Positions 10,383 to 63,003 of a stretch of DNA of 64,000 nt are shown here, one piece after another. The stretch is taken from IMG/VR virus record IMGVR_UViG_3300005095_000072, positions 32,001 through 96,000 of that record. One strand, given 5' to 3'. A program made the position numbers and the translations under genes. The notes under the pieces were generated by a model, which was not told the origin of the DNA, did no database searches, and saw only the letters and a program-made list of their open reading frames with translations. Within the stretch, counting starts at the first letter, position 1. Each line of letters begins with the position of its first letter. The stretch comes from a virus.

Positions 10383-10814
10383 ATGAAGCAAGTTATAGAC
10401 GATAGTGGAGTTATTGATAGTAGTGTAAAAAGATTATATGATTTGATAAAAGATATAGCAGTTATCATTATTCCTCTTTATAGAAAACCTATAACATTAT
10501 ACTTTAAAAATAGTAAAATATCTTACAATGAAATTGATAATCCTTTAGACGAAGAAGATGAGTATCTGACTATTCATTTAGAATTATCTGAACCTATTTC
10601 TTTATCTAGTATAGTTAGTTATGGAGAGTCAATAACTAAAGATAATTATTTGAGTAATCCTCAATATTTTGTTTTTAAACAGTTATTAGAAACTGAAATT
10701 GAAAACAGATTTAGAAAGTATATGAATTGCACTGTAGAAATTGAAGATATAAATGATGGGTTAAGCAATGATGAATTGATATATGAAATCAATGTAAAGG
10801 TTTATAATGGGTAA
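10383..10814 (+). CDS. hypothetical protein
   Basis: 143 aa ORF with GAGG SD. Confidence 0.65.
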   Translation: MKQVIDDSGVIDSSVKRLYDLIKDIAVIIIPLYRKPITLYFKNSKISYNEIDNPLDEEDEYLTIHLELSEPISLSSIVSYGESITKDNYLSNPQYFVFKQLLETEIENRFRKYMNCTVEIEDINDGLSNDELIYEINVKVYNG

Positions 10815-48300: not shown

Positions 48301-49146
48301 ATGAGTGAAATAGAAGTAAAACTTAAAAGACTACGACCTATTAAAGGTGAATATATAAAAGATTATTTAGATAACTTAGATGTATATAAAAATTTATCAA
48401 GTAGTCATGAGTTCCAAAATCAAACTAATGTAGGTCAAGGTGGAATAAATTTAGAAAGTATGCTTGAAACTGCAAAGAAACAACTATCTTTTGTATATGA
48501 TAACCTAACTGATAATTCTAAGTCTTTTGGGGCTAAGATGGATAGTATATTATCTTTACAGATGTTAGCATTACAACCTATAATACAAAACCTTGATGAA
48601 ACCTTATATGATGAGAGGAAAGCTCATAGTGCCTCTCGTTTGAATGGTATGATAACTCATTTAAAAGATAGCTTAATACAAAAACAACAGTTTGAGTTAA
48701 AAGAAGAGATAGATTTATTGCACCCTAAAATACAAAAAGCTTTTAGTTTTTTAGTTGAGTCATTTATATATGTACTTACAGAGGTAGGGGTAGATGCTTC
48801 AACTAAAGCTATGATTGTTAATTCTCTATCTCTTAAAATAATGGGATTTGAAGAGGAAATGAATAATAGACTTAAAGGGCTATCATTCTCTATGCTTGAT
48901 AATCTTGAAAATCCTATACTGGAGGGATTACCTAATATTAAACAGTTAGAGTTAATCAATCAACAAAAGAATACCGTAAAACCTATAGATAAAGATGATG
49001 ACGAAGATATTGAAACTGTAGAAGATATATCAAATAATATTAACCAACAAGAACAATATAAAAAAGTTAATTTAGATAATCTTAATATAGATGAAGATAA
49101 AAAGAAAGCTATATTAGAGAAGATAAAGCAAAGGAAAGGTGAGTAA
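48301..49146 (+). CDS. putative terminase small subunit
   Basis: Helical protein coupled (TAATG) to terL; call based on position only. Confidence 0.4.
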   Translation: MSEIEVKLKRLRPIKGEYIKDYLDNLDVYKNLSSSHEFQNQTNVGQGGINLESMLETAKKQLSFVYDNLTDNSKSFGAKMDSILSLQMLALQPIIQNLDETLYDERKAHSASRLNGMITHLKDSLIQKQQFELKEEIDLLHPKIQKAFSFLVESFIYVLTEVGVDASTKAMIVNSLSLKIMGFEEEMNNRLKGLSFSMLDNLENPILEGLPNIKQLELINQQKNTVKPIDKDDDEDIETVEDISNNINQQEQYKKVNLDNLNIDEDKKKAILEKIKQRKGE

Positions 49147-51011
49147 TGGCTTTATCTGACTTTCTAAGAGATATAGTTAAGCAAGTCGAAAAGGAAGCTA
49201 GAGTTAAACCTATGACTATAATAGAGTTTGCAGAAGCTCCATCAGGGCTTAACTATACTCTTTATCCTGTGCAGAAATTTATATTTAAAGTATTTTATAA
49301 AATTCCTCTGTCTAGTGATATAAATGAAAATAGAATTATAGTAAAAGACCAATTCAATGAAAAAACTTTATATGAGTTCGACGAGGTATCTTTTTTTAAA
49401 TTTTTAGAAAGAGAAGGACGAATAAACTTATCTTTCCAAGATTGGGAAGAGATGGAAGACACTATTGATGAAATTATTTTTGTTATAGGGAGAAGAGGGA
49501 GTAAAACTACTATGACTTCTATAATCTCTGCATATACAGTTTATTTATTATTACTTATGGAAGACCCTCATAGCTATTTTGGTATAGTTCCTAACGAACC
49601 TATTGGTATTGCTTTATGTTCTAATAGTTCTGAAGGGGCTGAAAGACAATTAAGAAACCTGATACAGCTTATTAATCCCTCTCGTTTCTTCCAACCTTAT
49701 ATTTATGGAACTAAAGGTGGGAAGTACTGGTTAAGAACAGTTAAGTTTAAAGAAAAAGAAGAGCTAGGATTAACTACATCGCCGGGTGATATTCTTATTG
49801 AAGCCTACGCCGCTAGTCCATCTGTTAGAGGTGCTAGTAATATTGTTGTAGTAATGGATGAGTTCGGACACTTTAATGATGCAGATGTTACAAACAAGAA
49901 AAAACCACTAGACGAGAAGTTATATGAAGCTTTAACCCCCTCTGTTGCAGGTTTCACAGACGATGATGGAGTAGCTTATGGTAAATCCTTTATAATGAGT
50001 TCTCCTAATGGTAAAAAAGGAGCTTTGTATAAGTTCTATAAGAACTCTTTCAATGATAAAACATATTTAGCACTAAATATGCCTAGTAACTGGGTTAATT
50101 ATAAAATATCTTCTAAGAGATTGAGAAATGCTTATAATAAATCTGAGTTATCATTTAGACAAGAATACTTAGGAGAATTTGTTGATTCTGCAGGAGGTTG
50201 GATAAGCAATAAAGATAAAATAAAAGCTATGATTAATATGAATATGGTCAATACTTTAAGAAATGGTGTAAGAGGTAAGAAGTACTTCTTAGGTATTGAC
50301 CTTGCTATGAGTGGGGATGGTTTCTCTCTCTGTGTAGCTCATAAGGAAGCTAGAAGGGTTAATCATAAAACAGAAGATGAAAAACTTGAAATATTATTGA
50401 ATGAAAAGAATATAATTGTAATTGATTATATTGAATACCATTTACCTGAAGAGGGAGAGGTTTTAGACTATGAGTTCATAATACAACGAATAAAAAATGT
50501 TTATAGGTATTTTAATATAAGTAGAGGGTATTATGACCAATGGGCAGGTCAAGTATTTACTCAATTATTTGCTAAACATAAAGTACCTAGATTAGAGATG
50601 ATACCATCTACTCAAAAACTAAATAGTGAAGTAGCTAAATTGTTTAGACAGTTAATTATGGAAGGTCGTTTAATGTGTCCTAGTGATGTAGATTATTTTA
50701 TTGATGAGATTTCTAACTTACAAGAAACAGTATCAAGGAATAATTATGTTAAAGTAGAAGCTAACTCAGGAGAACACGATGATGTTTTTGATGCAGTTAG
50801 TAGAGCTGTTTATATGGCTTATAGGTTAGGAGAGTATGAACCTTATATCCCTAATAGTGCTAAGAATAACAAAGTTTTAGAAGAGAAGATTAAGCAACAA
50901 ATAAAAGACAATGCAAGTAAAGTTAAGAAAAATTTTGGTGGTATGGAGCTACCTAGTAGTATAAAGATAAAAAGGAAAGCACCTTCTTATTTAATAAATA
51001 AAAGAAGATAA
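49146..51011 (+). CDS. terL: terminase large subunit
   Basis: LYPVQ, GRRGSKT, VVMDE, MSSPNG, FRQEY, GIDLA, YDQW, HDD. Confidence 0.92.
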   Translation: MALSDFLRDIVKQVEKEARVKPMTIIEFAEAPSGLNYTLYPVQKFIFKVFYKIPLSSDINENRIIVKDQFNEKTLYEFDEVSFFKFLEREGRINLSFQDWEEMEDTIDEIIFVIGRRGSKTTMTSIISAYTVYLLLLMEDPHSYFGIVPNEPIGIALCSNSSEGAERQLRNLIQLINPSRFFQPYIYGTKGGKYWLRTVKFKEKEELGLTTSPGDILIEAYAASPSVRGASNIVVVMDEFGHFNDADVTNKKKPLDEKLYEALTPSVAGFTDDDGVAYGKSFIMSSPNGKKGALYKFYKNSFNDKTYLALNMPSNWVNYKISSKRLRNAYNKSELSFRQEYLGEFVDSAGGWISNKDKIKAMINMNMVNTLRNGVRGKKYFLGIDLAMSGDGFSLCVAHKEARRVNHKTEDEKLEILLNEKNIIVIDYIEYHLPEEGEVLDYEFIIQRIKNVYRYFNISRGYYDQWAGQVFTQLFAKHKVPRLEMIPSTQKLNSEVAKLFRQLIMEGRLMCPSDVDYFIDEISNLQETVSRNNYVKVEANSGEHDDVFDAVSRAVYMAYRLGEYEPYIPNSAKNNKVLEEKIKQQIKDNASKVKKNFGGMELPSSIKIKRKAPSYLINKRR

Positions 51012-51022
51012 AAGGCTAAAAT

Positions 51023-52903
51023 ATGGTAAAAATTGGTAACAGTTTAACAGAGTCAGAACAAATAAAATTAAAAGCAAGAGCATCTGCAGGGGATGTTAAA
51101 TCTATTAATGTCTTAAAGATAAACTCTGCAAAAAGAAATTTATCTACTACAAGTTCATTAAGCTTTGGTAGTGGAAATTTAACTTCATTAAGACAGGCTG
51201 TTGATAAAATGAGTTTAGAGGATAATTATATTTATATAAGAGCTGAGTTATTAATGGAGTTAGTTATTTCAGGTGGGCTAACTATCTCAAGATTAACTTT
51301 AGAACAAAAGATTATTATATTTGCTTGGCTGTATAAGTATGATAAAAAGATAGGTAGAATCATAGATATATTTGTTAATTTACCTTTAAGCACTTTGAGA
51401 TTACAAAAACCAACTCAAACTAAAAATGATATACTTCAAGATTATGTGTATGCTTATTTTGAAAGATTTTGGAATAAAGTATCTTTTAAGAAAAAACTAA
51501 AAAAAGTATTTTTATACACTAAGTTATTTGGGGTGGGGGCTTTACTGTTAAGCGATGATTATAATGAAAAGTCAGATACAGTTATAGACTTTACTAATTT
51601 AAAAACTCTTATTCAAGATGAGATAACAGAAGAAGAATGGGAAGAGATAGACAAGATAACAAAGGAATATAATAACAACCCTGATAAAGTTTCATTAGAA
51701 GATAAAAATAAAGTTATATCTAAACTTGTTAGAGGTGTTAATAATCAATATAAAGGGGTGGAGTTCGCTAAAGTTGTAAATCCTTTTGAAGTTATTAAAA
51801 GAAAATCAAATAAAGATATTGATTATCATATATACAATATAAGTGAAGATACTCATATTAAAAAGTTCTTAGAAAGTGAGATGGGGGTTAAACTTAAAAG
51901 AAACCCTGATGATATAGTAAATATGTTAAAAAAGATAAACTATTCTGAAAGTTATATAAAATTATTTCTTAATAGCAATGGTATGGATGGAGTACAAGTT
52001 GATTCTAACCCTTATTATTCTTCTTGTTATATAGTATCTATGGAAGAAGAAGGACTATCTAACTTGGATAATTCTAACTTTAATAGAGTATTACAAAGTG
52101 CTATTGATTTAAAGATGGTTAGAGATAGAGAAAGAATGAAATCAAATGAAGCTTATAAAGTTATAAGGCTTGTTACTATCCCTGAGGGAGAACTCACACC
52201 TGACCAAGTAGCTGAGTTTGAAGCTAAAGTATTAGACGCCGCTGAATCACCTGAAGGTAGTGTTATTACAACTAACTATAATGTTAATTGGCAAGAGTTT
52301 CGTTTGGATGCTAGAGAACAGATAGATTTACAAGGAGTAGAACTTAAAGCAGAACAAGATATAAATTCAACTTTTGGTATAGCAGATGTACTCGTTGGAG
52401 GAGAAGATAGTTATGCTAATTCTTTTATGAAAACTGAAATGATGGTAAATGAGTTCAATGCTAGTAGAATGGAACTAAAAGAATTTGTAGAAGAGAAGAT
52501 ATTTAAACCTATAGCTATTAAGGCAGGATTTGTTGTTAAAGATGAATGGGGAGAACCTAAACCTGTTTATCCTAGCTTGAAGTTCGACAGAATATCTATT
52601 GCCAGAGGTTCAGAAGATTTTGCACTATTACAAGAACTAGCTAGTGCAGGTAAGTTGCCTTGGGAGACAATTATAAATGCTCTCAATTTTGATTATGAGG
52701 AAGTACAAACTAAGTTGAGAAATGAAAAAATGAGTATTTTAAATGATAACATAGGTGCTGTAATAGATAACTCTGCTGGAGGTTTAGCTGAACAATTATC
52801 TTCTAACCCTGAGTTTTTAGAGAAGATAGCAGATATATTACAGTTAAAGATAGATATAAATAAAGAACCAAACACAGATGAAGAATCACAGGGAGATGAA
52901 TAA
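51023..52903 (+). CDS. portal protein
   Basis: 626 aa directly after terL; IGRIIDIFVNLPLS clip region, FGIADVLVGGE-SYA, EEKIFKPIA. Confidence 0.75.
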   Translation: MVKIGNSLTESEQIKLKARASAGDVKSINVLKINSAKRNLSTTSSLSFGSGNLTSLRQAVDKMSLEDNYIYIRAELLMELVISGGLTISRLTLEQKIIIFAWLYKYDKKIGRIIDIFVNLPLSTLRLQKPTQTKNDILQDYVYAYFERFWNKVSFKKKLKKVFLYTKLFGVGALLLSDDYNEKSDTVIDFTNLKTLIQDEITEEEWEEIDKITKEYNNNPDKVSLEDKNKVISKLVRGVNNQYKGVEFAKVVNPFEVIKRKSNKDIDYHIYNISEDTHIKKFLESEMGVKLKRNPDDIVNMLKKINYSESYIKLFLNSNGMDGVQVDSNPYYSSCYIVSMEEEGLSNLDNSNFNRVLQSAIDLKMVRDRERMKSNEAYKVIRLVTIPEGELTPDQVAEFEAKVLDAAESPEGSVITTNYNVNWQEFRLDAREQIDLQGVELKAEQDINSTFGIADVLVGGEDSYANSFMKTEMMVNEFNASRMELKEFVEEKIFKPIAIKAGFVVKDEWGEPKPVYPSLKFDRISIARGSEDFALLQELASAGKLPWETIINALNFDYEEVQTKLRNEKMSILNDNIGAVIDNSAGGLAEQLSSNPEFLEKIADILQLKIDINKEPNTDEESQGDE

Positions 52904-54174
52904 TGGTAAAAGTTAAAAGAAGATTAAAAAGATTTAATACAAGTGCTTTAGATAAAATCATAGATTTACATGAAAAAACAGCAAGAGAGATATTTGATAT
53001 ACCTAATCTTAAGAAAATATCTAAAGGTGGCTCAGATAGACAAGTCTTTGATTTGGGTGGAAATAAAGTCTTAAAGGTAGCTAAGACGGCAAGAGGTTTA
53101 GCTCAAAATGAAGCTGAGTGGGATTTTAATTTAGCAGGAGGTATTTTACCACAGGTATTCTATAAAGGAAAGAACTTCTTAATAGTGGAGAAAGTTTATT
53201 TTGATAAGAAAAGACCTTTAATAAATGCTCTCTGTAAATATTTGAAAAACCAAGATACATATACTCCAAGTGCTTATGAAAGAAAATATAATATGGATAG
53301 AGCTTTAGAAAATGCAGAAGAACAATTTAAAATACCTTATTTAACTAATTTAAGAGATTATGATTATCTTATCGGAGATTTAACAGCACCTAGAAATTGG
53401 GGAGTTACAGGTAGAGGAAGAGTTGTACTTGCTGATGGAGGAACTGTTAGTTCTGATAGTATAATGAGTCCTCCTCAATGGGTTAAAGGAGAGTGGGAGG
53501 AAGTTAAACAAAAGAATAGAGAACTAAAAAAGTTATACGGAGATACAGATAAAATTATAGCTAGTAGTTTAGTAACTAAAGCAAAGATTGAAAAAGAGTT
53601 CCTAGAGAAGAACAAAGATTTACCTGAAACTGTTGTATATCAAACCCCACCTATAAAAGGTGGAAAGAAATTTCTATCTGTTATAAGAAGAGGGGATAAA
53701 CCTAGTAATTATTACTATTATTCTCAAAGAGTAGGAAAAGATAGCATAAGATTTTTGTTATATGATGCAAATAAAAAAGATAAACCTTTTGGAGTTTTAG
53801 AACAGTTTGAAGCTAGTCAAAACAGAACTACAGTTGGAGCTTTTAGTGGCTCAATGGATAAACCTAATTTAACTCCAAAAGAGATATGTAGAGAAGAAGT
53901 CAATGAAGAGAGTGAATACACTGTAACAAAAGCTGAGATGAACGATAGGATATTTCATCTTAAAAATATGAGAGTAGGGAGTCAAACAAATGAAGTAGCA
54001 TATCTTTATATTGTAAATGTTACAGGCTTAAAAACAACTCCTAAAAAACCTGAGAATGAGTGGGAGGAGAACACAGATACTCACTGGCTATCTTTAGAAG
54101 AGATAAAAGATTATTGTAATTGGGAAGCTTTTATTATAGCAGACAGAGCTAAAGCAATATTTAAGGAATTATAA
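52903..54174 (+). CDS. protein-kinase-like domain fused to a Nudix hydrolase
   Basis: GGSDRQVF..VLKVAK..QNEAE..DLTAPRNWG..LADGG, then GSMD..PKEICREEVNEESEY (Nudix box); linker KIIASS. Confidence 0.75.
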   Translation: MVKVKRRLKRFNTSALDKIIDLHEKTAREIFDIPNLKKISKGGSDRQVFDLGGNKVLKVAKTARGLAQNEAEWDFNLAGGILPQVFYKGKNFLIVEKVYFDKKRPLINALCKYLKNQDTYTPSAYERKYNMDRALENAEEQFKIPYLTNLRDYDYLIGDLTAPRNWGVTGRGRVVLADGGTVSSDSIMSPPQWVKGEWEEVKQKNRELKKLYGDTDKIIASSLVTKAKIEKEFLEKNKDLPETVVYQTPPIKGGKKFLSVIRRGDKPSNYYYYSQRVGKDSIRFLLYDANKKDKPFGVLEQFEASQNRTTVGAFSGSMDKPNLTPKEICREEVNEESEYTVTKAEMNDRIFHLKNMRVGSQTNEVAYLYIVNVTGLKTTPKKPENEWEENTDTHWLSLEEIKDYCNWEAFIIADRAKAIFKEL

Positions 54175-54177
54175 AAA

Positions 54178-54564
54178 ATGAAGATTATAGCTTTTGAGAT
54201 TAAAACATCAACTTTAGAAAAAATGTTAAAAAAGTATCTTAAAAGCATTTTTGAGAAAGATATTGAATATAAGATAAGTATCTATAAAGATGAAAAAACT
54301 AAAGAACCTTATATCTATATAAATGAAATTTATGTTTATCCTGATAAAAGAGGTCAAGGTTTAGGAACTAGATTCCTCAAAGAGGTTATTAAGTTCGCAG
54401 ATATTCATAAGTTAAATATAGCTTTGTTATCAACTTTAATAAACAATAAAAAACAGAATAGCTTTTATTATAGACAAGGTTTTGTTAGATTAAAATGTAA
54501 AAATTGTAAATACAATATGAGAAGATATTATAAAAGGAAGAACAATGAAGATAATAGCATATAA
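54178..54564 (+). CDS. GNAT acetyltransferase
   Basis: IYVYPDKRGQGLGT (acetyl-CoA motif A), FYYRQGF; starts MKIIA. Confidence 0.85.
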   Translation: MKIIAFEIKTSTLEKMLKKYLKSIFEKDIEYKISIYKDEKTKEPYIYINEIYVYPDKRGQGLGTRFLKEVIKFADIHKLNIALLSTLINNKKQNSFYYRQGFVRLKCKNCKYNMRRYYKRKNNEDNSI

Positions 54565-55978
54565 CAGTAATCCCAAGAACTTTAGAAGATACCATCAAAG
54601 TAAAGGACTGTTTAATAAAAGGTCTATGAGAATAGCTAAGAGAAATCAAAAGACACATAAAAAATCAGCTTTAAAAAGATTTTGTGGAGATAAAATAGAC
54701 ACTAATTGTATTACTAGAGCTTTGAGAAGTAATAAAAAAGAACTTAGAAAGTCTGCTAATTTTGCCTTAACTTTAAAAAAGATAGCTAGTCGTAGAAAGG
54801 GTATAAGAAATAAATTTGATATAGCAACTAGAAAGAAAAACGATGCTATTTATAATAGAAAACATAAAACTGAACTACAAAAGGTTAATAGAGCTAGATT
54901 ACAAAGTAAAGCTAGTTCAAAGATAAACTTCGATAAGATACAAAATTACTTCACAAATGATATTTTAGAAACAGTAGCACCTAAAGAAAACAATTCTAAC
55001 CTTTGGTTAGGTGGAAGTTTTATAGGAAGACCTTTAGAGTATTTACCTTATGTTTATAGAGGTATTTCAAATGAAGAGTGGAACAATATTCAAAAGAAAA
55101 AATATATCAAAAGTGATGGAAGATTAAATTTATCAAATGAAAAAGGACTGACTGTTTATAGTATCAATCCCAACACTGCTTTAAATTATGCTAATGATTT
55201 TATTCCTGATAGTAAAAAAGAGTTGAAACCTACAAAAGATAAGCCTAATTACATAGTTCAAGTAGATATTAGAGATATAAAAGATAAATTTTTTATAGAT
55301 AAAGCTGATGGTTATGTTAAGACTAAAAGTAAAGTACCTATAAAATATATAACTAGAGTGTGGGAGGTATATCCTAATAACAAAACTAAGTTAATTTTCA
55401 AAAGAAGCAATTTAGACGAAACTTTTAACTCTAAGGCTAGTAACAAAACTATTGTTTATCATGGAAGTAATGCTAATATATCTAAGCTAGAACCTAAATA
55501 TATGATGTTAGACCATGCAAACTCACAAGAGGGTGTAGGTATTTATTTTACAACTGAAATATCAACTGCTAAAAGATATGGTAAAAACATTTACACAACA
55601 GAAGTAGAACATACAAATTTTATATCTTCAAGAACTAAAGTATCTGCTTTAGGTAAGCAAAAAGTAATTAAATTGTTAAAAGAGTTAGGAAAGTTAGACC
55701 GTGAGAGTGCTTTTTATCTTGTGACTGATTATGGTGTTTATATTACTGAACCTGAAGAGTATGAAGATTATATGATGGAAGATGTTTATAACAGTATGAG
55801 AACAGAGCAAATAAGAAATTTTCAAATAGAACTATCTGAGAGATTTAGTGTAGTAGATTTTGTTAATGTATGGAATAAAGTATTGCCTAAAGTTCATGGA
55901 ACTTATATTTTACAAAAAGGTAACGAGATTTGGTATTCCATTATAAACACAAAATACAAAATTAAAAGAGTTAATTAA
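54545..55978 (+). CDS. protein with two ADP-ribosyltransferase-like domains
   Basis: Domain 1 YVYRGIS..TVYSINPNTALNYA; domain 2 VYHGS..GVGIYFTT..AKRYG; starts MKIIA. Confidence 0.65.
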   Translation: MKIIAYNSNPKNFRRYHQSKGLFNKRSMRIAKRNQKTHKKSALKRFCGDKIDTNCITRALRSNKKELRKSANFALTLKKIASRRKGIRNKFDIATRKKNDAIYNRKHKTELQKVNRARLQSKASSKINFDKIQNYFTNDILETVAPKENNSNLWLGGSFIGRPLEYLPYVYRGISNEEWNNIQKKKYIKSDGRLNLSNEKGLTVYSINPNTALNYANDFIPDSKKELKPTKDKPNYIVQVDIRDIKDKFFIDKADGYVKTKSKVPIKYITRVWEVYPNNKTKLIFKRSNLDETFNSKASNKTIVYHGSNANISKLEPKYMMLDHANSQEGVGIYFTTEISTAKRYGKNIYTTEVEHTNFISSRTKVSALGKQKVIKLLKELGKLDRESAFYLVTDYGVYITEPEEYEDYMMEDVYNSMRTEQIRNFQIELSERFSVVDFVNVWNKVLPKVHGTYILQKGNEIWYSIINTKYKIKRVN

Positions 55979-55979
55979 T

Positions 55980-56609
55980 ATGTTTGATTTAGAGAAAGCA
56001 GTAGAAGATTTTAAAACAAAAGGTGCAAAGTATTTTATTAGTACTTATGAGAAAGATTTTGAGAGATTGTTAAATCAAGCTCCTAAAGGAAAGCTAAGAA
56101 GCTATTTAAAGTCTAATTTTGGAGTATATGCTCTTTCAAAGCTTAGGAATATATTATCATTAAATAAAAAAGATTTTCTTTATAATCCTATTTTTAGGCT
56201 TGTATTAGATGAATTTTATTTGCTTGATAAATATAGTCAAAAAGATTTAGATAAAGAGAAGATTATTTTAGATAGAACTCTTTCTAAATATCTTACAGAT
56301 ATGGGATACACTTATTCTATGGAAATATTGAATGGTGATAAAGTTCTTAATATAAACTCAATATATGTAGATAAAGATAAAAGAGGTCAAGGTATAGGAA
56401 CTAAATTTTTAGAAGATTTGATTAGATTTGCAGATAAATATAATTATATTTTAACATTAACACCTAGTTCAGATTTTGGAAGTGATGTTAATAAACTTAA
56501 AAAATTTTATTTTAAATTTAAGTTTCAATCAAATAAAGGTAGTAAAGCAATAAATCAATTAAGAAACTCTATGTTTAGACTACCTAAGAATTATAAAAAG
56601 GATAGATAA
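55980..56609 (+). CDS. GNAT acetyltransferase (paralog of 54178)
   Basis: IYVDKDKRGQGIGT, LTLTP..LKKFYFKFKF. Confidence 0.85.
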   Translation: MFDLEKAVEDFKTKGAKYFISTYEKDFERLLNQAPKGKLRSYLKSNFGVYALSKLRNILSLNKKDFLYNPIFRLVLDEFYLLDKYSQKDLDKEKIILDRTLSKYLTDMGYTYSMEILNGDKVLNINSIYVDKDKRGQGIGTKFLEDLIRFADKYNYILTLTPSSDFGSDVNKLKKFYFKFKFQSNKGSKAINQLRNSMFRLPKNYKKDR

Positions 56610-57004
56610 TGAGAATAATATCAATGGATGTTAAAGCAGATTATAGTAAGATGACACCTAACAACACTAAAATAGTTATACCTTATATAAAAGTTAAATT
56701 GATTAAAAATTCAAAAGATAAAAAAGACTTTGAAACTTTTTTAAAATACTTTATAGATAAAGGTTATTATATAGTTATAAACAACGGTAGCTATGAAATT
56801 TCTCAAAAAGAACTTAGAGATTTAAAAATAAAACCTAGTTTATTAAAGAAGATACACACTTATGACTCTCCTAAATATAATCCTTATGTAGTGAGAGATT
56901 ACAGTTCTTTTCCTGTCGAAGATTGGTTACAGCAAATAAAAGCCTTTGAATACATTAATAATGAAACAGATGAAGGAACTGGATTTTATGGTGATTGGAG
57001 CTAA
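56609..57004 (+). CDS. hypothetical protein
   Basis: Starts MRIISMDVKA. Confidence 0.65.
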   Translation: MRIISMDVKADYSKMTPNNTKIVIPYIKVKLIKNSKDKKDFETFLKYFIDKGYYIVINNGSYEISQKELRDLKIKPSLLKKIHTYDSPKYNPYVVRDYSSFPVEDWLQQIKAFEYINNETDEGTGFYGDWS

Positions 57005-57008
57005 AAGT

Positions 57009-57386
57009 ATGAAAATTATAGCATTAACTAAAGGGCAAACAGAAGATAAAGGAACTATTGCTATTGATTTTGATGGAGTTATTCATAAGTATTCTAAAGG
57101 TTATGCTGATGGTAGTATTTATGACGAGCCTATGACAGGTGCAGAAGAAGCAATGATAGAACTTCTTGATAAAGGTCATAAAATATTTATATTTACTGCT
57201 AGAAAAGATAAGAAAGCGATTAAACAATGGTTAAAAGATAACTTTAATGATAAGAGATTACATAATTTGCTTATAACAAATGAGAAACTACCTGCACAAG
57301 TTTATATTGATGATAGAGGGTATAGGTTTAAAGGTTGGGGTGGTGCTATGAACTTCATAGAAAAATTGGACGAGGAAATAATATGA
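57009..57386 (+). CDS. HAD-superfamily phosphatase
   Basis: IAIDFDGVI, IFTAR, K..YIDDR; start at ATG 57009 (MKIIAL) after GGAG. Confidence 0.85.
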   Translation: MKIIALTKGQTEDKGTIAIDFDGVIHKYSKGYADGSIYDEPMTGAEEAMIELLDKGHKIFIFTARKDKKAIKQWLKDNFNDKRLHNLLITNEKLPAQVYIDDRGYRFKGWGGAMNFIEKLDEEII

Positions 57387-58501
57387 AAGAAAATAAAATC
57401 ATCAGTTTAGATAAAATACCTAATAAGGTAAATCCCCCTAATCCTATGAGAAGAGGTGTTAAAAGAACTGCAAGAAACTATTTCAAACAACCTCATATTC
57501 CAAAGAAAATGCTAAATCCTAATGCTGAAAATCTTAGTATTACTTCTGATAGTATAGAAGATGAAGCAAACACTAATAGGAACTTAGAGGGAGAAGAGAT
57601 AATAAATCATTTTGATAAAGTAAAGTGCGACAATTATTCTTGTTATATTGAAAATGATAACTATTTTATATATCCTAGAACAGGTATAAAAGTGGATTTA
57701 GATGATACTGTAGAGTTGGCTTTTAATTCTAATGATTGGATATTCACTCAAATAACAGGGTTAGCTAGTGTAAATATATTTGATAATTATAAGATAACTC
57801 CTGCAACTACAAAATTTGTCAATAATAACGGTAATGCTTTTAGTGATAGAATATTAAAAAAATATTATAAAACTTTTATAGGAGCACATAATTTTAGAAA
57901 TCATAAACAAGTTATTGATGAGTCTTATGGTATTATCTTAGATGCAGTATTAAGAGAAATACCTGTAAATAATGAAGAGTCTGTCTATTATGTAGATTTA
58001 CTTATTGCTACAAATAAAGTTAGACACCCTGAATGGACTCAAAAGATAGAAAATAAAATTGTTAGATTTGGTAGTATGGGAGCTGAGTCATCTTCTTTTA
58101 AATGCACTTACTGTGGTAATATTCCAACTTCTTATGATGAGTTCTGCGACCATTTTAAGTTATATAAAGGTAAATATTATATAGACCCTGCTAGTGGTAA
58201 AAAGTTAAGGATAGCTCATCTTGTAGAAGACTATAAAAACAAAGAAGGTAAAGGATATGTAGAATTTGTAGAGTATTCCTTTTTGGATATACCCCCTGCT
58301 TTTGAGGGAGCTTCAATGGCTCATGTTATTAAAGTACCTCAAAATACAAATGTTAAGTTTAGTATTCCCAGACAGTTATTAACTAAATCTGCTTTTAATG
58401 TCTGGAAAGAATTTTATAAAATAAATGATAATGGTAATAATGTAGGTTATGATGAACTTACAGAGAAACTACCTGCAATATCTGAGTTTAAAGGAGACTA
58501 G
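57383..58501 (+). CDS. putative prohead maturation protease
   Basis: NNNGNAF, TFIGAHNFRNH, GIILDA, SMG, CTYCG..CDH, EYSFLDIPPAF (HK97/herpes-type fold with Zn insert); start ATG 57383 (MKENKIIS). Confidence 0.7.
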   Translation: MKENKIISLDKIPNKVNPPNPMRRGVKRTARNYFKQPHIPKKMLNPNAENLSITSDSIEDEANTNRNLEGEEIINHFDKVKCDNYSCYIENDNYFIYPRTGIKVDLDDTVELAFNSNDWIFTQITGLASVNIFDNYKITPATTKFVNNNGNAFSDRILKKYYKTFIGAHNFRNHKQVIDESYGIILDAVLREIPVNNEESVYYVDLLIATNKVRHPEWTQKIENKIVRFGSMGAESSSFKCTYCGNIPTSYDEFCDHFKLYKGKYYIDPASGKKLRIAHLVEDYKNKEGKGYVEFVEYSFLDIPPAFEGASMAHVIKVPQNTNVKFSIPRQLLTKSAFNVWKEFYKINDNGNNVGYDELTEKLPAISEFKGD

Positions 58502-58588: not shown

Positions 58589-59324
58589 ATGGGTAAAGTA
58601 AAAGCTACAGATGATTTAAAAATATTAGAAAATCTTAAAAAAGGTATATACACTGAAGAGTATGTACAAAAATTAAAATTAAAAGATACATTTAGTTTTA
58701 AAATAAAAGCTTATTATATTCATAAAGATAGATATAACTTTGAGGAAAGTAATTATATTTCAAAAGAGAGTAAGGTTAAAGTATTTTGTAATAAGTGTAA
58801 AGAATATTTTAATGTAAGAGTAGACACTGTAATAAGAACTAACTCTAAAGGAGGGTGTCCTAATAGATGTTGGAGAGAACCTTTTAGAGGTTATTCTATA
58901 GGTAATTTACACCAAAAAGAAAAAACTTTAAAAGAATTTAAAGAGTATGTTAAGATTTCAGGGTTAGATAAATTTTTTAAATATGATTTTTCAAGTTATA
59001 AAAGTGCAAATGAAGGTATTGTAACTACCTGTCTATTACATAATGAAACTTTTAAAAAACCTTTACATAAGTTACGAAAAGGGGTGGAGTTTAGGCAATG
59101 TTTATAAGAAAAATGGATTTAAAGAACATCATAAAACTCCTCCTAATTATTTTTATATAAAAGGGCAAGATAAATACAATAAAAAAAATTTTACAAAAAG
59201 TAAAATATCAAAAAGATATAATATACCTATTAATGAGATAAAATCTGAAAAAGCTGTAATGTATGAATTAGGTTATAAAAGGGTATATGATAGTGGATTA
59301 ACTTGTTATATGAAAGTAAATTAA
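58589..59324 (+). pseudogene. decayed Hef-like homing endonuclease (N- and C-terminal pieces in different frames)
   Basis: 58589..59107 has Cys repeats (CNKC..GCPNRC, CLLH). 59043..59324 has WSLGNVY..GF..PNYFY..RVYDSG. The nuclease core present in the 63094 paralog is missing. Confidence 0.65.
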
Positions 59325-60716: not shown

Positions 60717-61601
60717 ATGGATAGAGAGAAAGAGATACTATCTGTTGTGTCTGCACAATCAAGAGCTATGGACACTATAGCTTCAAGATTAGTAGCAGGT
60801 GAATACACAGATGAGGACATTCAAAGCAAGTTAGAGTCTGTTGCAAGAGTTCTTGAAACAACTGCAAGTGCACAAGATTACCTATATAGTCAAATACAAG
60901 ATGCAAGTTCGTTTAGTGTTATGGCAAATGATGAGTTCGACTCAGTATTGAGTAAAGTTCTAGCAACTCAAGCTCAAGCAGAACTACTAACACAAGCATT
61001 AGAGGGAGAGCTTGTTACTATTGCAGGTGATGAAGAGAGCGACGAAGATGAACTTGATGCAGAAGCTTGTGGAGTACAAGATGATGAGATATTAGAAGCT
61101 AAGTCTTTTGATATGTATGCAGGTGATGAAGAAGGAAATGACGAGCCTAGTGATGAGGACGATGATGTTCTTGAAACTGATGCAGTAGCAGTAAGGCATA
61201 ATCCAGAGACTGGAGATATAGAGGCTTATAGTGCTAAACCTAGTAAGCCTAAAATGATGTATATTAAAAAACAAAATGCAACTCCTCTAAGAAAACCTGC
61301 AGGTAGATTAAAAGTTAAACCTACATCAAGAGGTAAAAAACCTTTCGGAAAACCAACTGCAAGTGCAGAGGAGCTTATGGCACAAGCACAAGAGCTTATA
61401 GCAATGGCACAAGAGATAGGGCAAGGTGATAATCATGGAGAGATAAATCCTCAAGTGAAGCAAAGAGAACCTAAGTCTTTAAATAAAATGGTAAATGATA
61501 GTGCAAATGGAGTTCCTGCTGTAAAAACTGTAGCAAGTGAAACTACTATGCAATCAACTGCAAATGATAGCTCATCTATGATTAGATGGGACTTTGTGTA
61601 A
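60717..61601 (+). CDS. putative head scaffolding protein
   Basis: Acidic, Ala-rich, upstream of decoration and capsid genes; many xxA|S motifs. Confidence 0.55.
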   Translation: MDREKEILSVVSAQSRAMDTIASRLVAGEYTDEDIQSKLESVARVLETTASAQDYLYSQIQDASSFSVMANDEFDSVLSKVLATQAQAELLTQALEGELVTIAGDEESDEDELDAEACGVQDDEILEAKSFDMYAGDEEGNDEPSDEDDDVLETDAVAVRHNPETGDIEAYSAKPSKPKMMYIKKQNATPLRKPAGRLKVKPTSRGKKPFGKPTASAEELMAQAQELIAMAQEIGQGDNHGEINPQVKQREPKSLNKMVNDSANGVPAVKTVASETTMQSTANDSSSMIRWDFV

Positions 61602-62079: not shown

Positions 62080-63003
62080 ATGGAAAGATTTATCCCAACA
62101 AGTGTAGCTCAATCAACTAGCTCACTACAAGATATAACAACTAGAAACGAGCTGACTGCAAAGCTTATGGTAACTGCCGCAGGTAGAGAAGAATTGGCTG
62201 TGTCAATGGTAGAACCTCTAAGAGAGATGAGAGACTATCGTGCAGTAGGTAGAAGAGCATTTAGAGTATATCCTCTAGGACAAGGTGCTATTCCTGAGTT
62301 TCCTAAAGATGTAGATGTACCTGCTTATGTAATAGGTGAAGAAGGTGATGAAGTTCAAGCTAAAATAAAAGGAAAGAAAGTACTTGTACCTCTTTTCAAA
62401 ATAACTTCAAACCCTATGATACCTATAACTGAAATCAAACAAGCAAGATTTGACTTAAATGATAGAGTTAGAGAGAAAGTTAAATCAGAGATTGTTAAAG
62501 TAGAGGATGGTAAAATCTTTGAGCTTATGAAGATAGTAGCAGAGAGAAGCACAGATATAAATGCACTAACAACTGTAAATGAGTCAGAGCTAACAGTTAA
62601 GCACTTTAGCGAAGCACAAGCAGAGATAGAGAAGTGGGGAGAGCTTGATGCAGTAAATATCTTCATGAACCCTTATTGGAAACAAACTCTAAGAGAGATG
62701 AACAATGTTCAAACAGGGTACTATGTAGATTTTGAAACAGCAAGAGAGCTTATAACAGCAGGTTATGTTGCAAGAATCAATGGAACTCAAATTCATACTT
62801 CAAGTATGGTACCGAAAGATATGATATTCATAACAGCTGACCCTGAGTTCTTAGGAAGACTGGTTATTTCATTCGATTTAACAGTCATCGAATCAGAAGA
62901 TGCAAAGGCTCTCGAAGTCGGGTATAGTATCTTTGAAGAGATAGGTATCTTGATACACAACCCTAAAGCACTTAGTGCAATCAAAATCAATCTAGGACAG
63001 TAG
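62080..63003 (+). CDS. major capsid protein (HK97 fold)
   Basis: ATG 62080 after AAGGAG; GREELAVSMVEPLR..DY..VGRR, IFMNP, GYSIFEEIGILIHNPKA; followed by a terminator. Confidence 0.85.
   Translation: MERFIPTSVAQSTSSLQDITTRNELTAKLMVTAAGREELAVSMVEPLREMRDYRAVGRRAFRVYPLGQGAIPEFPKDVDVPAYVIGEEGDEVQAKIKGKKVLVPLFKITSNPMIPITEIKQARFDLNDRVREKVKSEIVKVEDGKIFELMKIVAERSTDINALTTVNESELTVKHFSEAQAEIEKWGELDAVNIFMNPYWKQTLREMNNVQTGYYVDFETARELITAGYVARINGTQIHTSSMVPKDMIFITADPEFLGRLVISFDLTVIESEDAKALEVGYSIFEEIGILIHNPKALSAIKINLGQ

Follow-up and report, generated by a model that had tools for sequence, protein, structure and literature searches.

Why do unrelated enzymes encoded between the portal and prohead protease genes of a phage start with the same five residues, and could that peptide be an address to the head? 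The window considered here is a 64,000 nucleotide stretch of an IMG/VR virus record, part of a 118 kb phage genome called G000. All of the phages concerned are uncultured contigs, and among cultured capsid relatives identity reaches only 34%. The original prediction was that K/R-I-I-A/S is a packaging or cleavage tag that loads host-modifying enzymes into the head for injection. The N-termini from which it argued were all recovered, as were the start of the protease, the KIIASS within the kinase-NUDIX fusion and the lack of the tag on two cassette genes.

Features of the portal-to-protease cassette and of the head genes downstream, in window coordinates
Feature	Position	Strand	Evidence and remarks
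Portal protein gene	51023..52903	+	Upstream cassette border; phrog_16240, E 6.8e-11; stop overlaps next start
Kinase-like plus NUDIX-like fusion, 423 aa	52903..54174	+	Starts MVKVKR, no N-terminal tag
Internal KIIAS at the domain junction of the 423-aa fusion	53551..53565	+	KIIASS is residues 217-222
GNAT acetyltransferase, 128 aa, starts MKIIAF	54178..54564	+	Pfam Acetyltransf_7, 39.9 bits (cut-off 27)
477-aa protein, starts MKIIAY; C-terminal ART-PolyVal-like domain (298-476)	54545..55978	+	Pfam, BLAST, ortholog fold
GNAT, 209 aa, untagged (MFDLEK)	55980..56609	+	Pfam Acetyltransf_7, 29.2 bits
131-aa protein, starts MRIISM	56609..57004	+	Family unassigned
HAD-type phosphatase-like protein, 125 aa, starts MKIIAL	57009..57386	+	phrog_1238, E 1.8e-21
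Prohead protease, 372 aa, starts MKENKIISL	57383..58501	+	Downstream cassette border; phrog_18299 (head maturation protease), E 6.6e-16
Putative scaffolding protein, acidic	60717..61601	+	Position and composition; upstream of cement and capsid genes; homologs in G001 and G004
KTVAS in scaffold, 25 residues from the C-terminus	61524..61538	+	Fits site conserved in wider family; tag resembles the site
Major capsid protein	62080..63003	+	phrog_2522, E 2.5e-44; query for finding relatives

The cassette lies directly downstream of the terminase and portal genes. Its genes are closely spaced, with starts that overlap stops, and no terminator-like sites were found on the + strand within it. The portal shares 56% identity with that of one relative, G001, and 54% with that of another, G004, and the capsid protein is of the HK97 type, about 300 residues long and accompanied by a separate acidic scaffold. 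In the fusion protein that follows the portal, the N-terminal half (residues 1-216) has phrog_4301 (function unknown) as its sole PHROG match and an Atlas match to Kinase-PolyVal (0.91), which leaves the predicted kinase as a lead only. The NUDIX assignment of the C-terminal half fared better in the Atlas (0.96, TM 0.76) although it has no Pfam match, and this half is 55-58% identical to solo tagged genes of G004 and G001. Pfam found no MuF domain in this gene at E ≤ 0.01. The tag at the fusion junction (DNA GAT AAA ATT ATA GCT, without a start codon) is homologous in position to the MRIIA with which the stand-alone NUDIX-like genes of the relatives start.

Both GNAT assignments are above the Pfam cut-off, and the HAD and protease assignments were also supported. 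The tagged GNAT may also use its tag as the fold's first strand. The untagged GNAT matches positions 2710-2802 of the 3925 positions of phrog_10691, a giant-protein PHROG, and its G001 ortholog starts MRIIAS. The N-terminal domain of the 477-residue protein (residues 1-118) is very basic and homologous to a tagged 131-residue gene of G004; a middle part follows. BLAST matched this protein to the ART genes of G001 and G004 and to the same 131-residue gene, whereas its Pfam ART-PolyVal score (21.5 bits) is below the cut-off of 31.2. The family gives weak ART-PolyVal matches in 9 of 26 members. A model of the G001 ortholog (pLDDT 95.6) matched 20 BFVD entries at E ≤ 1e-3, of which those with names are ART-PolyVal, and thus the predicted ART-like domain is supported by modeled fold rather than by a Pfam score above cut-off. 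The MRIISM protein had no Pfam or PHROG match and no homolog in G001, G002 or G004. The HAD protein starts at an internal ATG of the open reading frame 56946-57386 with GGAG upstream, and its orthologs begin there too. Its tag is followed by the linker TKGQTEDKG and then by the core, which begins TIAIDFDGVI and carries the invariant D20 and D22 of the DxD motif (alignment A3). Except for the two GNATs, there is no paralogy among the tagged proteins.

Across G000, M[KR]II[AS] begins 9 of the 152 called proteins, where position-specific composition predicts 0.11-0.16 (Poisson P 2e-13) even with frequencies that included the tagged hits themselves. Genes were called by our own open reading frame and ribosome-binding-site script, whose errors in start choice would conceal tags rather than produce any. 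The tag was absent from all 1210 genes of 78 loci from more distant capsid relatives. Among 630 genes of 57 metagenome loci it was found once, in a gene of the relative G002 itself (0/604 outside G002), and thus the pooled controls contain no tag in 1814 genes. A chance product of Lys/Ile-rich N-termini in an AT-rich genome has next to no probability. Lys and Ile are indeed the most frequent residues at positions 2-7 of the G000 proteome, but this explanation is already refuted by the observed and expected counts, the empty controls and seven tagged genes in unbroken succession in G001.

The tag is concentrated in the cassette (4/6 genes versus 5/146 elsewhere in G000; Fisher 8e-5). The prediction that no other genes carry it holds within the window, where only four of 83 called proteins are tagged, all from the cassette, but fails genome-wide and in relatives. 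Five further tagged G000 genes are found at genome positions 8941, 9746, 19600, 102766 and 103863, and an additional gene at 10555 starts MLKIIS. Off the head module, three small tagged genes lie past the lysis/tail-fiber region and one lies in the replication region; two tagged genes lie between the tail tube and tape measure genes. Tagged proteins are basic in G000 and in G004 (median pI 9.3 versus 6.8), a trend that fails in G002.

Several observations indicate that the tag is a module appended to its proteins. Among the 120 best HAD homologs only four, all clade members, have tag and linker; the other 116 lack them and begin 5-10 residues ahead of the DxD strand. Residues 1-9 of the G001 ART model are low-confidence coil, and the PHROG and Pfam profiles begin downstream of the tag. 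Codons 2-5 vary synonymously (AAA/AAG/AGA/AGG, ATT/ATA, GCA/GCT/GCC and TCT/TCA) and the DNA upstream of tagged starts is not conserved, so the tag acts on the peptide level. As judged from these sequences, the tag is non-random, functions as peptide and was added onto its proteins.

The same data make it very improbable that conservation lies on the nucleic acid, either as an A/U-rich start that helps to initiate or couple translation or as a recombination linker that shuffles gene cassettes. The tag codons are A/U-rich, stops and starts overlap as in translational coupling, and the breakpoints of domain rearrangements coincide exactly with tags. However, in addition to the synonymous variation of every codon and the unconserved upstream sequence, the Ala/Ser codon, which contains G/C, is always retained, and the HAD tags are accompanied by a peptide linker. 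Moreover, no tag is present on the capsid, sheath and tube genes, which are highly expressed, or on 67 window genes for replication and metabolism. As the GC content of the whole G000 genome is 28%, A/U-richness requires no special motif, and recombinational shuffling at tags may be a by-product.

The original prediction could be evaluated in related phages, and there the cassette genes keep the tag. The forms MRI[IV]A/MKIIA begin 6/6 portal-to-protease genes of G001 (0/52 others) and 5/5 of G004 (2/157 others), giving 15 of 17 cassette genes in the three genomes, although gene content differs and only some genes are held in common. G001 encodes a metallopeptidase-like protein, and G002, which has four to five tagged genes, no cassette and an untagged protease, encodes a 2H/Acb1 protein. 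All seven NUDIX-like homologs start M[KR]IIA irrespective of C-terminal fusion, and where domains are fused the composite protein begins with the tag. The predicted N-termini thus show a tag retained through cargo-gene turnover and rearrangement. These comparisons back what had been proposed, a functional peptide tag that is tied to the head-assembly module and carried by enzymes with no other relationship to each other, although the tag is not confined to the cassette.

The protease shares the tag. In the relatives it starts MNIIAN (G001) and MSIIAF (G004), and in all three phages the tag is on a disordered extension, which in the window protein is basic, about 75-110 residues long and modeled with pLDDT <50 over residues 1-75; the model therefore does not dock the protease's own tag. 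In G002 and L098, relatives without the cassette, both the extension and the tag are absent. In another phage, G005, the leaders read M[KF][IV][FL]x and the protease starts MFAFGN. By predicted N-termini, the tag is therefore common to the protease and co-varies with it. Pfam gave no family for the window protease at E ≤ 0.01. The modeled catalytic domain is nearest to T4 gp21 (Z 8.6, rmsd 2.5 over 126 residues) and is also similar to 31 herpesvirus protease entries (Z 5.3-7.8), with the next unrelated family at Z 4.0, which supports a gp21/assemblin fold.

This fold bears on the possibility that the tag is mainly a site recognized and cut by the prohead protease, after Ala as in herpesviruses, rather than a head-loading element. 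N-termini would be trimmed and fused enzymes would be cut into domains once inside the head. The herpesvirus M-site consensus is V/L/I-x-A|S, with the cut between the last two residues. Of 48 scaffold-like proteins of distant relatives, 46 contain [KR][VIL]A[SA] 22-40 residues (median 24) from the C-terminus, and the corresponding scaffold site reads KTVAS in G000, KTVAN in G001 and KTTAS in G004 (alignment A8). The likeness of the tag to this K-[VT]-[VI]-A-S site rests on four to five residues. Tag-like motifs also occur at cargo domain junctions, DKIIASS in G000, PSIIASS in G001 and N[KR][IV]IA[KR]Y in P0168, P0169 and P0172, and each NUDIX-like domain ends in [QNI][IVT][IV]A. Nevertheless we consider a role mainly as a cleavage site unlikely. 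The tag Ala is followed by widely differing residues (F, Y, M, L, G, K, S, N, E or I), which give no sign of a strict cleavage consensus, and position 5 of the G005 leaders is V, I or G. Removal of five residues alone has no obvious purpose, one junction tag of the window ART protein has decayed to NSKASN, and the motif is not significantly avoided in protein interiors.

A decidedly unlikely alternative is that the tag limits toxic enzymes in the producing cell and has no packaging role, being an N-terminal instability or regulatory signal such as a degron recognized by an AAA+ protease of host or phage, or a mark that designates substrates of the cassette GNATs. The tag resembles a class of N-terminal motifs recognized by ClpX, in which Met is followed by a basic and three hydrophobic residues. 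ART, NUDIX and metalloprotease-like cargo could damage the producer, and tagged genes are also found beyond the head module. However, position 2 is Asn or Ser on the proteases and in G002 and is therefore not always basic. An instability signal also leaves unexplained the tagged and co-varying prohead protease, the placement of the genes in a late head operon and the leaders resembling the T4 capsid-targeting type on the ART family in phages with gp21-type proteases.

We therefore favor, with a probability of roughly 0.6, the interpretation that M-[K/R]-I-I-[A/S] works as an N-terminal address peptide for capsid loading, specific to this lineage and equivalent in function to the capsid-targeting sequence (CTS) of T4. 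Loading of enzymes into the capsid for injection, as by the longer T4 sequence, is the most likely role. The enzymes would be products of the portal-to-protease section of the late head operon, each with the tag as a free, unstructured hydrophobic stub at its extreme N-terminus, sometimes followed by a flexible linker. Part of the assembling procapsid (scaffold core, interior of the capsid protein, portal or protease) would bind the stub, and the accessory enzymes would be enclosed together with the protease. As the protease must enter the procapsid, its tag is counted as support for the address role. The cargo would comprise GNAT, ART-PolyVal-like, NUDIX-like, HAD-like and metalloprotease-like proteins, small basic proteins and, in a relative, Acb1. 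It would enter the next host along with the DNA, and the protease may remove the tag. Domains of the window match polyvalent or injected proteins, namely the ART-PolyVal fold and the GNAT that matches a giant-protein PHROG. Overall, the original observation was partly confirmed and its interpretation partly supported.

In other phages, homologs of the ART protein sit within arrays of unrelated genes that have one phage-specific leader, and a T4-CTS-like pattern fits 33 of 95 full N-termini of these homologs. Two phages with CTS-like leaders encode a gp21-type S77 protease, whereas a phage with an MKIFA leader encodes the protease of the present clade. In G007, leader-bearing genes flank the protease gene.

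Four known systems resemble this arrangement. Encapsulin cargo-loading peptides are short, unstructured, hydrophobic and terminal, and direct unrelated enzymes into an HK97-fold shell, as would the tag; they differ in being usually C-terminal, in their consensus and in serving a non-viral compartment. The herpesvirus assemblin M-site shares the protease fold superfamily and a basic-aliphatic-Ala-Ser scaffold site about 25 residues from the C-terminus, but the sixth residue of the tag is not conserved and the scaffold site here is a candidate by sequence. Polyvalent and MuF-fused phage effectors are expected, in the account of Iyer et al. 2017 (PMC5512222), to be packaged and delivered with the DNA. 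Likenesses to the polyvalent proteins of that account are the ART-PolyVal fold, the Kinase-PolyVal lead, the metallopeptidase-like protein of G001, GNAT, NUDIX, the 2H/Acb1 protein of G002 and genes that adjoin portal and terminase. Polyvalent proteins have 2-15 effector domains per polypeptide (PMC5512222); two window proteins have two to three domains and the others one. Most of the domains here are encoded by small genes of their own, every one tagged, and not in one giant polypeptide. Pfam gave no MuF match (E ≤ 0.01) for the gene that follows the portal.

In T4, the CTS is on internal proteins IPI-III and an N-terminal propeptide is on the ADP-ribosyltransferase Alt (PMC9026906, PMC3012670, PMC8442874). 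M[KR]IIA is unrelated to the MKTYQEFIAE given there (PMC8442874) and half as long, and lacks the gp21 cleavage motif L/I-x-E (PMC8442874, PMC9026906). The present phages also differ in their HK97-type capsid protein of about 300 residues, separate acidic scaffold and protease unmatched in Pfam (E ≤ 0.01), and in that most of the proposed cargo genes are in one portal-protease cassette. As in the T4 system, a short N-terminal leader is found on proteins that are unrelated to each other, often basic and non-essential, an ART among them; related phages differ in their cargo sets, and the protease may owe its targeting to its own terminus (PMC9026906, PMC3012670). One leader is common to unrelated proteins of a single phage (the nine of G000), and ART homologs bear CTS-like leaders in phages with gp21-type proteases.

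In a small clade of uncultured myoviruses, the pentapeptide M[KR]II[AS] is a real and strongly non-random N-terminal sequence, appended to the prohead protease and to accessory enzymes whose set varies. With genes and starts called by our own simple script for ORFs and ribosome-binding sites, the tag begins 9 of the 152 proteins of the whole genome (contig G000), where 0.11-0.16 would be expected from the position-specific residue frequencies of the same N-termini. The core [KR]II[AS] occurs 13 times in the 37,599-residue proteome; 11 of these occurrences fall within residues 1-9 of a protein, another forms the KIIASS junction of a 423-aa protein and the last is seven residues away from a C-terminus. 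Proteins did not significantly avoid the motif in their interior (P 0.18-0.44). Every N-terminus listed in the original prediction was present in the sequence. The accompanying claim that no other ORF starts in this way holds within the window (4 of 83 proteins, all belonging to the cassette of six genes that separates portal from protease) but fails for the genome, which has five more tagged genes. The tagged proteins are otherwise unrelated, as had been proposed: all-against-all BLAST links only two GNAT proteins, one of them tagged, which rules out paralogy as the origin of the shared N-termini. A 20-residue N-terminal peptide, a query ill-suited to the purpose, gave no match in PHROGs.

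The window covers bases 32001-96000 of the single 118,425-base contig G000. It has a G+C content of 28% and nearly all of its genes are on the + strand. Replication and nucleotide metabolism genes (helicases, a RecA-like protein, methylases, ribonucleotide reductase, ThyX, a ligase and a clamp loader) fill the left 49 kb, and the head module starts at about 49 kb and extends rightward. As tail sheath, tube and tape measure are encoded outside the window, the phage is a myovirus. Within the cassette, gene spacing is tight, stops overlap starts and no terminator-like sites were seen on the + strand. Promoter-like sites were not in excess (88 versus 85.9 by chance) and the whole window has no tRNA genes.

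Features of the head module and tagged or tag-like genes elsewhere in G000 (window coordinates unless marked genome)
Feature	Coordinates	Strand	Remarks
Large terminase	49146-51011		First gene of head module
Portal	51023-52903	+	Directly before cassette
Six accessory genes (cassette)			Between portal and prohead protease
Prohead protease	57383-58501	+	After cassette
Homing endonuclease, split in two ORFs	58589-59107 and 59043-59324		After protease, just upstream of polymerase fragment
DNA polymerase A fragment, ~250 aa	59338-60099		Pfam PF00476, E 2e-20, profile positions 199-324 of 381
Unassigned gene			Between polymerase fragment and scaffold
Acidic scaffold	60717-61601	+	
Cement protein			Between scaffold and major capsid protein
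Major capsid protein	62080-63003	+	
Homing-endonuclease-like gene, 525 aa	63094-64671		After capsid gene
Tagged genes, small, basic	genome 8941, 9746, 19600		No family assigned
Tag-like gene, 119 aa	genome 10555-10914 (L001)		MLKIIS start, EKIISLSK end
Tagged genes (MKIIAG), 175 and 86 aa	genome 102766, 103863 (span 102766-104123; L003:6766-8120)		Between tail tube and tape measure

The 175- and 86-aa genes flank a conserved 176-aa gene, in the place usual for tail-assembly chaperones; they look like inserted accessory genes because they have no homologues in the relative G001. The polymerase-fragment gene lies between prohead protease and scaffold also in the relatives G001, G004, G002 and G005, and by BLAST the 525-aa homing-endonuclease-like gene has at least five paralogues in G001, dispersed over the head and tail modules.

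Two close relatives were recovered from IMG/VR, G001 (a 55.8-kb fragment, capsid 84% identical) through the capsid protein and G004 (a 109.8-kb contig) through the HAD protein. All six G001 genes between portal and protease begin with MRI[IV]A (a metalloprotease-like protein, a NUDIX-like domain with a C-terminal domain, ART, GNAT, an unassigned protein and HAD); its protease begins MNIIAN, and none of the 52 other called genes has the motif. In G004, M[KR]IIA begins all five cassette genes (a solo NUDIX-like domain, ART, a very basic 131-aa protein, HAD and an unassigned 114-aa protein), the protease begins MSIIAF and two more MKIIAG genes lie elsewhere. The tag was thus kept in both relatives despite gene turnover: the three cassettes have only partly common gene content, yet 15 of their 17 genes are tagged. 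In the more distant G002 (capsid 41% identical), which lacks the cassette and has a 266-aa protease without N-terminal extension, four proteins begin with M[NR][IV]IAG and another with MFNIISG. As controls, the motif was present in none of 1210 + strand genes at 78 other capsid-relative loci and in one of 630 genes at 57 protease-relative loci, that one being G002's own gene. A metagenome relative (L098) has an untagged protease directly after the portal. In capsid sequence, the nearest cultured relatives are Bacillus phage G and a Tunturiibacter phage, at only 34% identity; no DNA-level relatives were found among GenBank phages, nor any relatives in IMG/VR by a single-sequence protease search.

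The tag is conserved as a peptide and is an add-on to its proteins. Codons 2-5 vary synonymously, and each gene has different DNA upstream. HAD homologues numbered 694; in the 120 best of them the usual N-terminus is M-(K)-(K)-TIAIDFDGVI, and only four clade proteins (the query, P0047, P0048 and P0049, 61-100% identical) have M[KR]IIA[LN] followed by a T.GQKEDKG linker and then the TIAIDFDGVI strand. The P0049 contig is absent from IMG/VR. A fifth candidate, P0065, was rejected, its regex match being the core strand itself. All seven NUDIX-like-domain homologues begin with M[KR]IIA across four different C-terminal arrangements. In the AlphaFold model of the G001 ART (73-sequence alignment, pLDDT 95.6) residues 1-9 are coil (block pLDDT 65) and the fold begins at strand 10-16.

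The tag goes with the polypeptide N-terminus rather than with any particular domain. The 477-aa G000 protein consists of a homologue of the 131-aa tagged G004 gene, a middle part and the ART, with the tag at its first residues only and the former ART tag position decayed to NSKASN. In the 423-aa protein the junction DKIIAS is the aligned counterpart of the N-terminal MRIIA[EK] that starts the separate genes of G001 and G004, and the junction DNA has GAT where those genes have ATG. Other fused forms have the junction motifs PSIIASS and N[KR][IV]IA[KR]Y, and [QNI][IVT][IV]A ends every NUDIX-like domain. Such tag-like junctions may be either relics or working sites.

The predicted cargo comprises enzyme domains. 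Both G000 cassette GNATs score above Pfam cut-offs, and for one of them the match is to a domain within a PHROG of giant proteins that is 3925 positions long. The ART stays below the Pfam threshold; its model matched ART-PolyVal proteins in BFVD (20 hits with E <= 1e-3, TM up to 0.66). In the PDB the model matched 6kyf, an anti-CRISPR protein (E 1.6e-4), with weaker matches to a chain of a cyanophage pre-ejectosome and to ARTs of the PARP or diphtheria type. The NUDIX identity rests on the Atlas (0.96, TM 0.76), and the kinase identity is a lead only. According to Iyer et al. (PMC5512222), domain types like those of the cassette are predicted to be packaged and injected. Tagged proteins of G000, G001 and G004 are basic, but those of G002 are not. 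One G002 protein (275 aa, MNIIAG; L090:6172-6996) is a fusion of a GNAT-like region with an Acb1 domain (anti-CBASS 2H-phosphoesterase; Pfam PF23474, E 3e-27), and its gene lies directly upstream of the terminase gene.

The protease shares the tag. It has the gp21/assemblin fold: VIA-align gave Z 8.6 to T4 gp21 (rmsd 2.5, 126 aa), followed by 31 herpesvirus protease entries (Z 5.3-7.8) and then by the nearest unrelated family (Z 4.0). In G000, G001 and G004 its N-terminal extension is disordered and basic with the tag at the tip. In the predicted model the protease's own tag was not seen docked on the catalytic domain, residues 1-75 having pLDDT below 50. G005 (capsid 42% identical) has arrays of genes with M[KF][IV][FL][AVIG] leaders, one directly after the protease gene; its ART homologue (MKIFANSKLKVYHGG) is among the leader genes, and in its protease a basic linker comes after the initial MFAFGN. 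From phage to phage, the start of the protease therefore changes together with the leader.

The scaffold has a related element. In 46 of 48 scaffold-like ORFs of the wider family there is a [KR]-[VIL]-A-[SA] site whose median distance to the C-terminus is 24 residues (the other two have [RK]KEAS). A conserved W...PDVS..F tail follows the site, and this placement is reminiscent of the herpesvirus scaffold maturation site. The site is KTVAS, KTVAN and KTTAS in G000, G001 and G004, respectively. Since K-I-I-A-(S) resembles it, a likeness of four to five residues, the tag may mimic a scaffold element recognized by the protease or the capsid protein, although the sixth tag residue is variable and some G005 leaders have no Ala. 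This likeness also bears on the main rival reading, that the tag is chiefly a processing site for the protease, which we consider unlikely. We favor the tag as a candidate minimal capsid-targeting leader (probability roughly 0.6). Tags far from the head module and the untagged G002 protease would be compatible with a capsid address only by analogy; the T4 internal-protein genes are likewise scattered.

Other phages carry other leaders. MKIIA was found in the window's own protein only among 131 ART-family representatives. For 95 ART homologues in which the first ART strand begins no more than 60 residues from the start, 27 had almost no leader, 33 had a pattern like the T4 capsid-targeting sequence or CTS (aromatic-x-aromatic-aliphatic-x-Glu), and many of the remaining 35 had leaders that were Glu-rich as judged by eye. 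A tblastn search of GenBank phages with two family members gave no match. At 26 IMG/VR loci with ART homologues the ART gene often lies within an array of unrelated genes sharing one leader: MKSF.E[FY]L.EAK, MKTY.EFL.E, MKI[KR]ELFE, MKTFREWLRE, M[RK]I[RK]QI[IT]EA, or MR[AY]IELYE, which with near variants begins more than 12 consecutive genes, one an ART homologue, in G006 (L243, 5611-16056). An unbiased scan of capsid-relative loci of 20 kb each detected a roughly 20-residue amphipathic leader, MD[ND]KK[VI]A[SAG]ELLK.AK.L, on at least 12 genes (L017:2468-17878), and MIKKYS.L[KH] arrays at L008 and L010. Most of the L017 leader genes lie downstream of the capsid gene, and the L017 scaffold contains GGQPKVAS.

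Five of the array contigs were compared for protease type: two with Glu-type leaders carry a Peptidase_S77 (gp21-type) protease, the MKIFA contig carries this clade's protease and no S77, and two fragments had neither type. The whole sample is small, with four phages that pair Ala-type leaders with this clade's protease, two that pair Glu-type leaders with S77 and two further contigs without either call. In G007 (L265) the S77 gene lies inside the MKSF.E[FY]L.EAK array that includes the ART homologue, a neighborhood logic like that of the window; the 31%-complete G006 fragment has no protease of either type.

Because these arrays surround homologues of the same ART, they suggest that the leader principle may be widespread. 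More tentatively, and at somewhat less than even odds, capsid cargo could in many tailed-phage lineages bear a short N-terminal address code peculiar to the lineage; this code would be matched to the prohead protease and scaffold of the lineage and borne by the protease itself. Candidate codes are M[KR]IIA (this clade), MKIF[AV] (G005), MNIIAG (G002), MD[ND]KKVA[SAG]ELLK (L017), MR[AY]IELYE, MKI[KR]ELFE and MKTFREWLRE in other phages, and the T4 CTS; the clade's code, with four residues behind Met, would then be a reduced form. Under this scheme, the set of proteins co-injected with the DNA of a phage could be read from sequence alone through over-represented N-terminal k-mers, and it would include candidate anti-defense enzymes such as Acb1, AcrIF11-like ARTs, NUDIX proteins, kinases and acetyltransferases.

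Were the clade's tag a capsid address, genomes could likewise reveal which proteins are loaded in advance and injected by uncultured phages as their first weapons against host defenses. In the clade and its relatives these would be ART, NUDIX, GNAT, kinase-like and phosphatase-like proteins, with the Acb1 anti-CBASS protein in one relative. A principle known only from T4-like phages would extend to a different head-assembly system, and so small a tag, four residues after Met, could serve for packing foreign proteins into phage heads.

Open-access article texts searched with motif strings and for capsid targeting and internal proteins, main text only, contained no description of an M[KR]IIA tag. 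The nearest known system is that of T4. According to three articles (PMC9026906, PMC3012670, PMC8442874), the first 10 residues of IPIII are enough for head targeting of foreign proteins, cleavage by the gp21 protease occurs after L/I-x-E, Alt is an ART from which a 7-residue propeptide is removed, other basic proteins of T4-related phages bear CTS-like leaders, and the gp21 termini possibly target gp21 itself to the prohead. In contrast to the T4 CTS, the clade's tag is unrelated in sequence, half as long and without the Glu-type motif, and the head-assembly genes of G000 differ from those of T4. By analogy, the best reading is that the tag system works like the T4 CTS but is not a member of the T4 CTS system.
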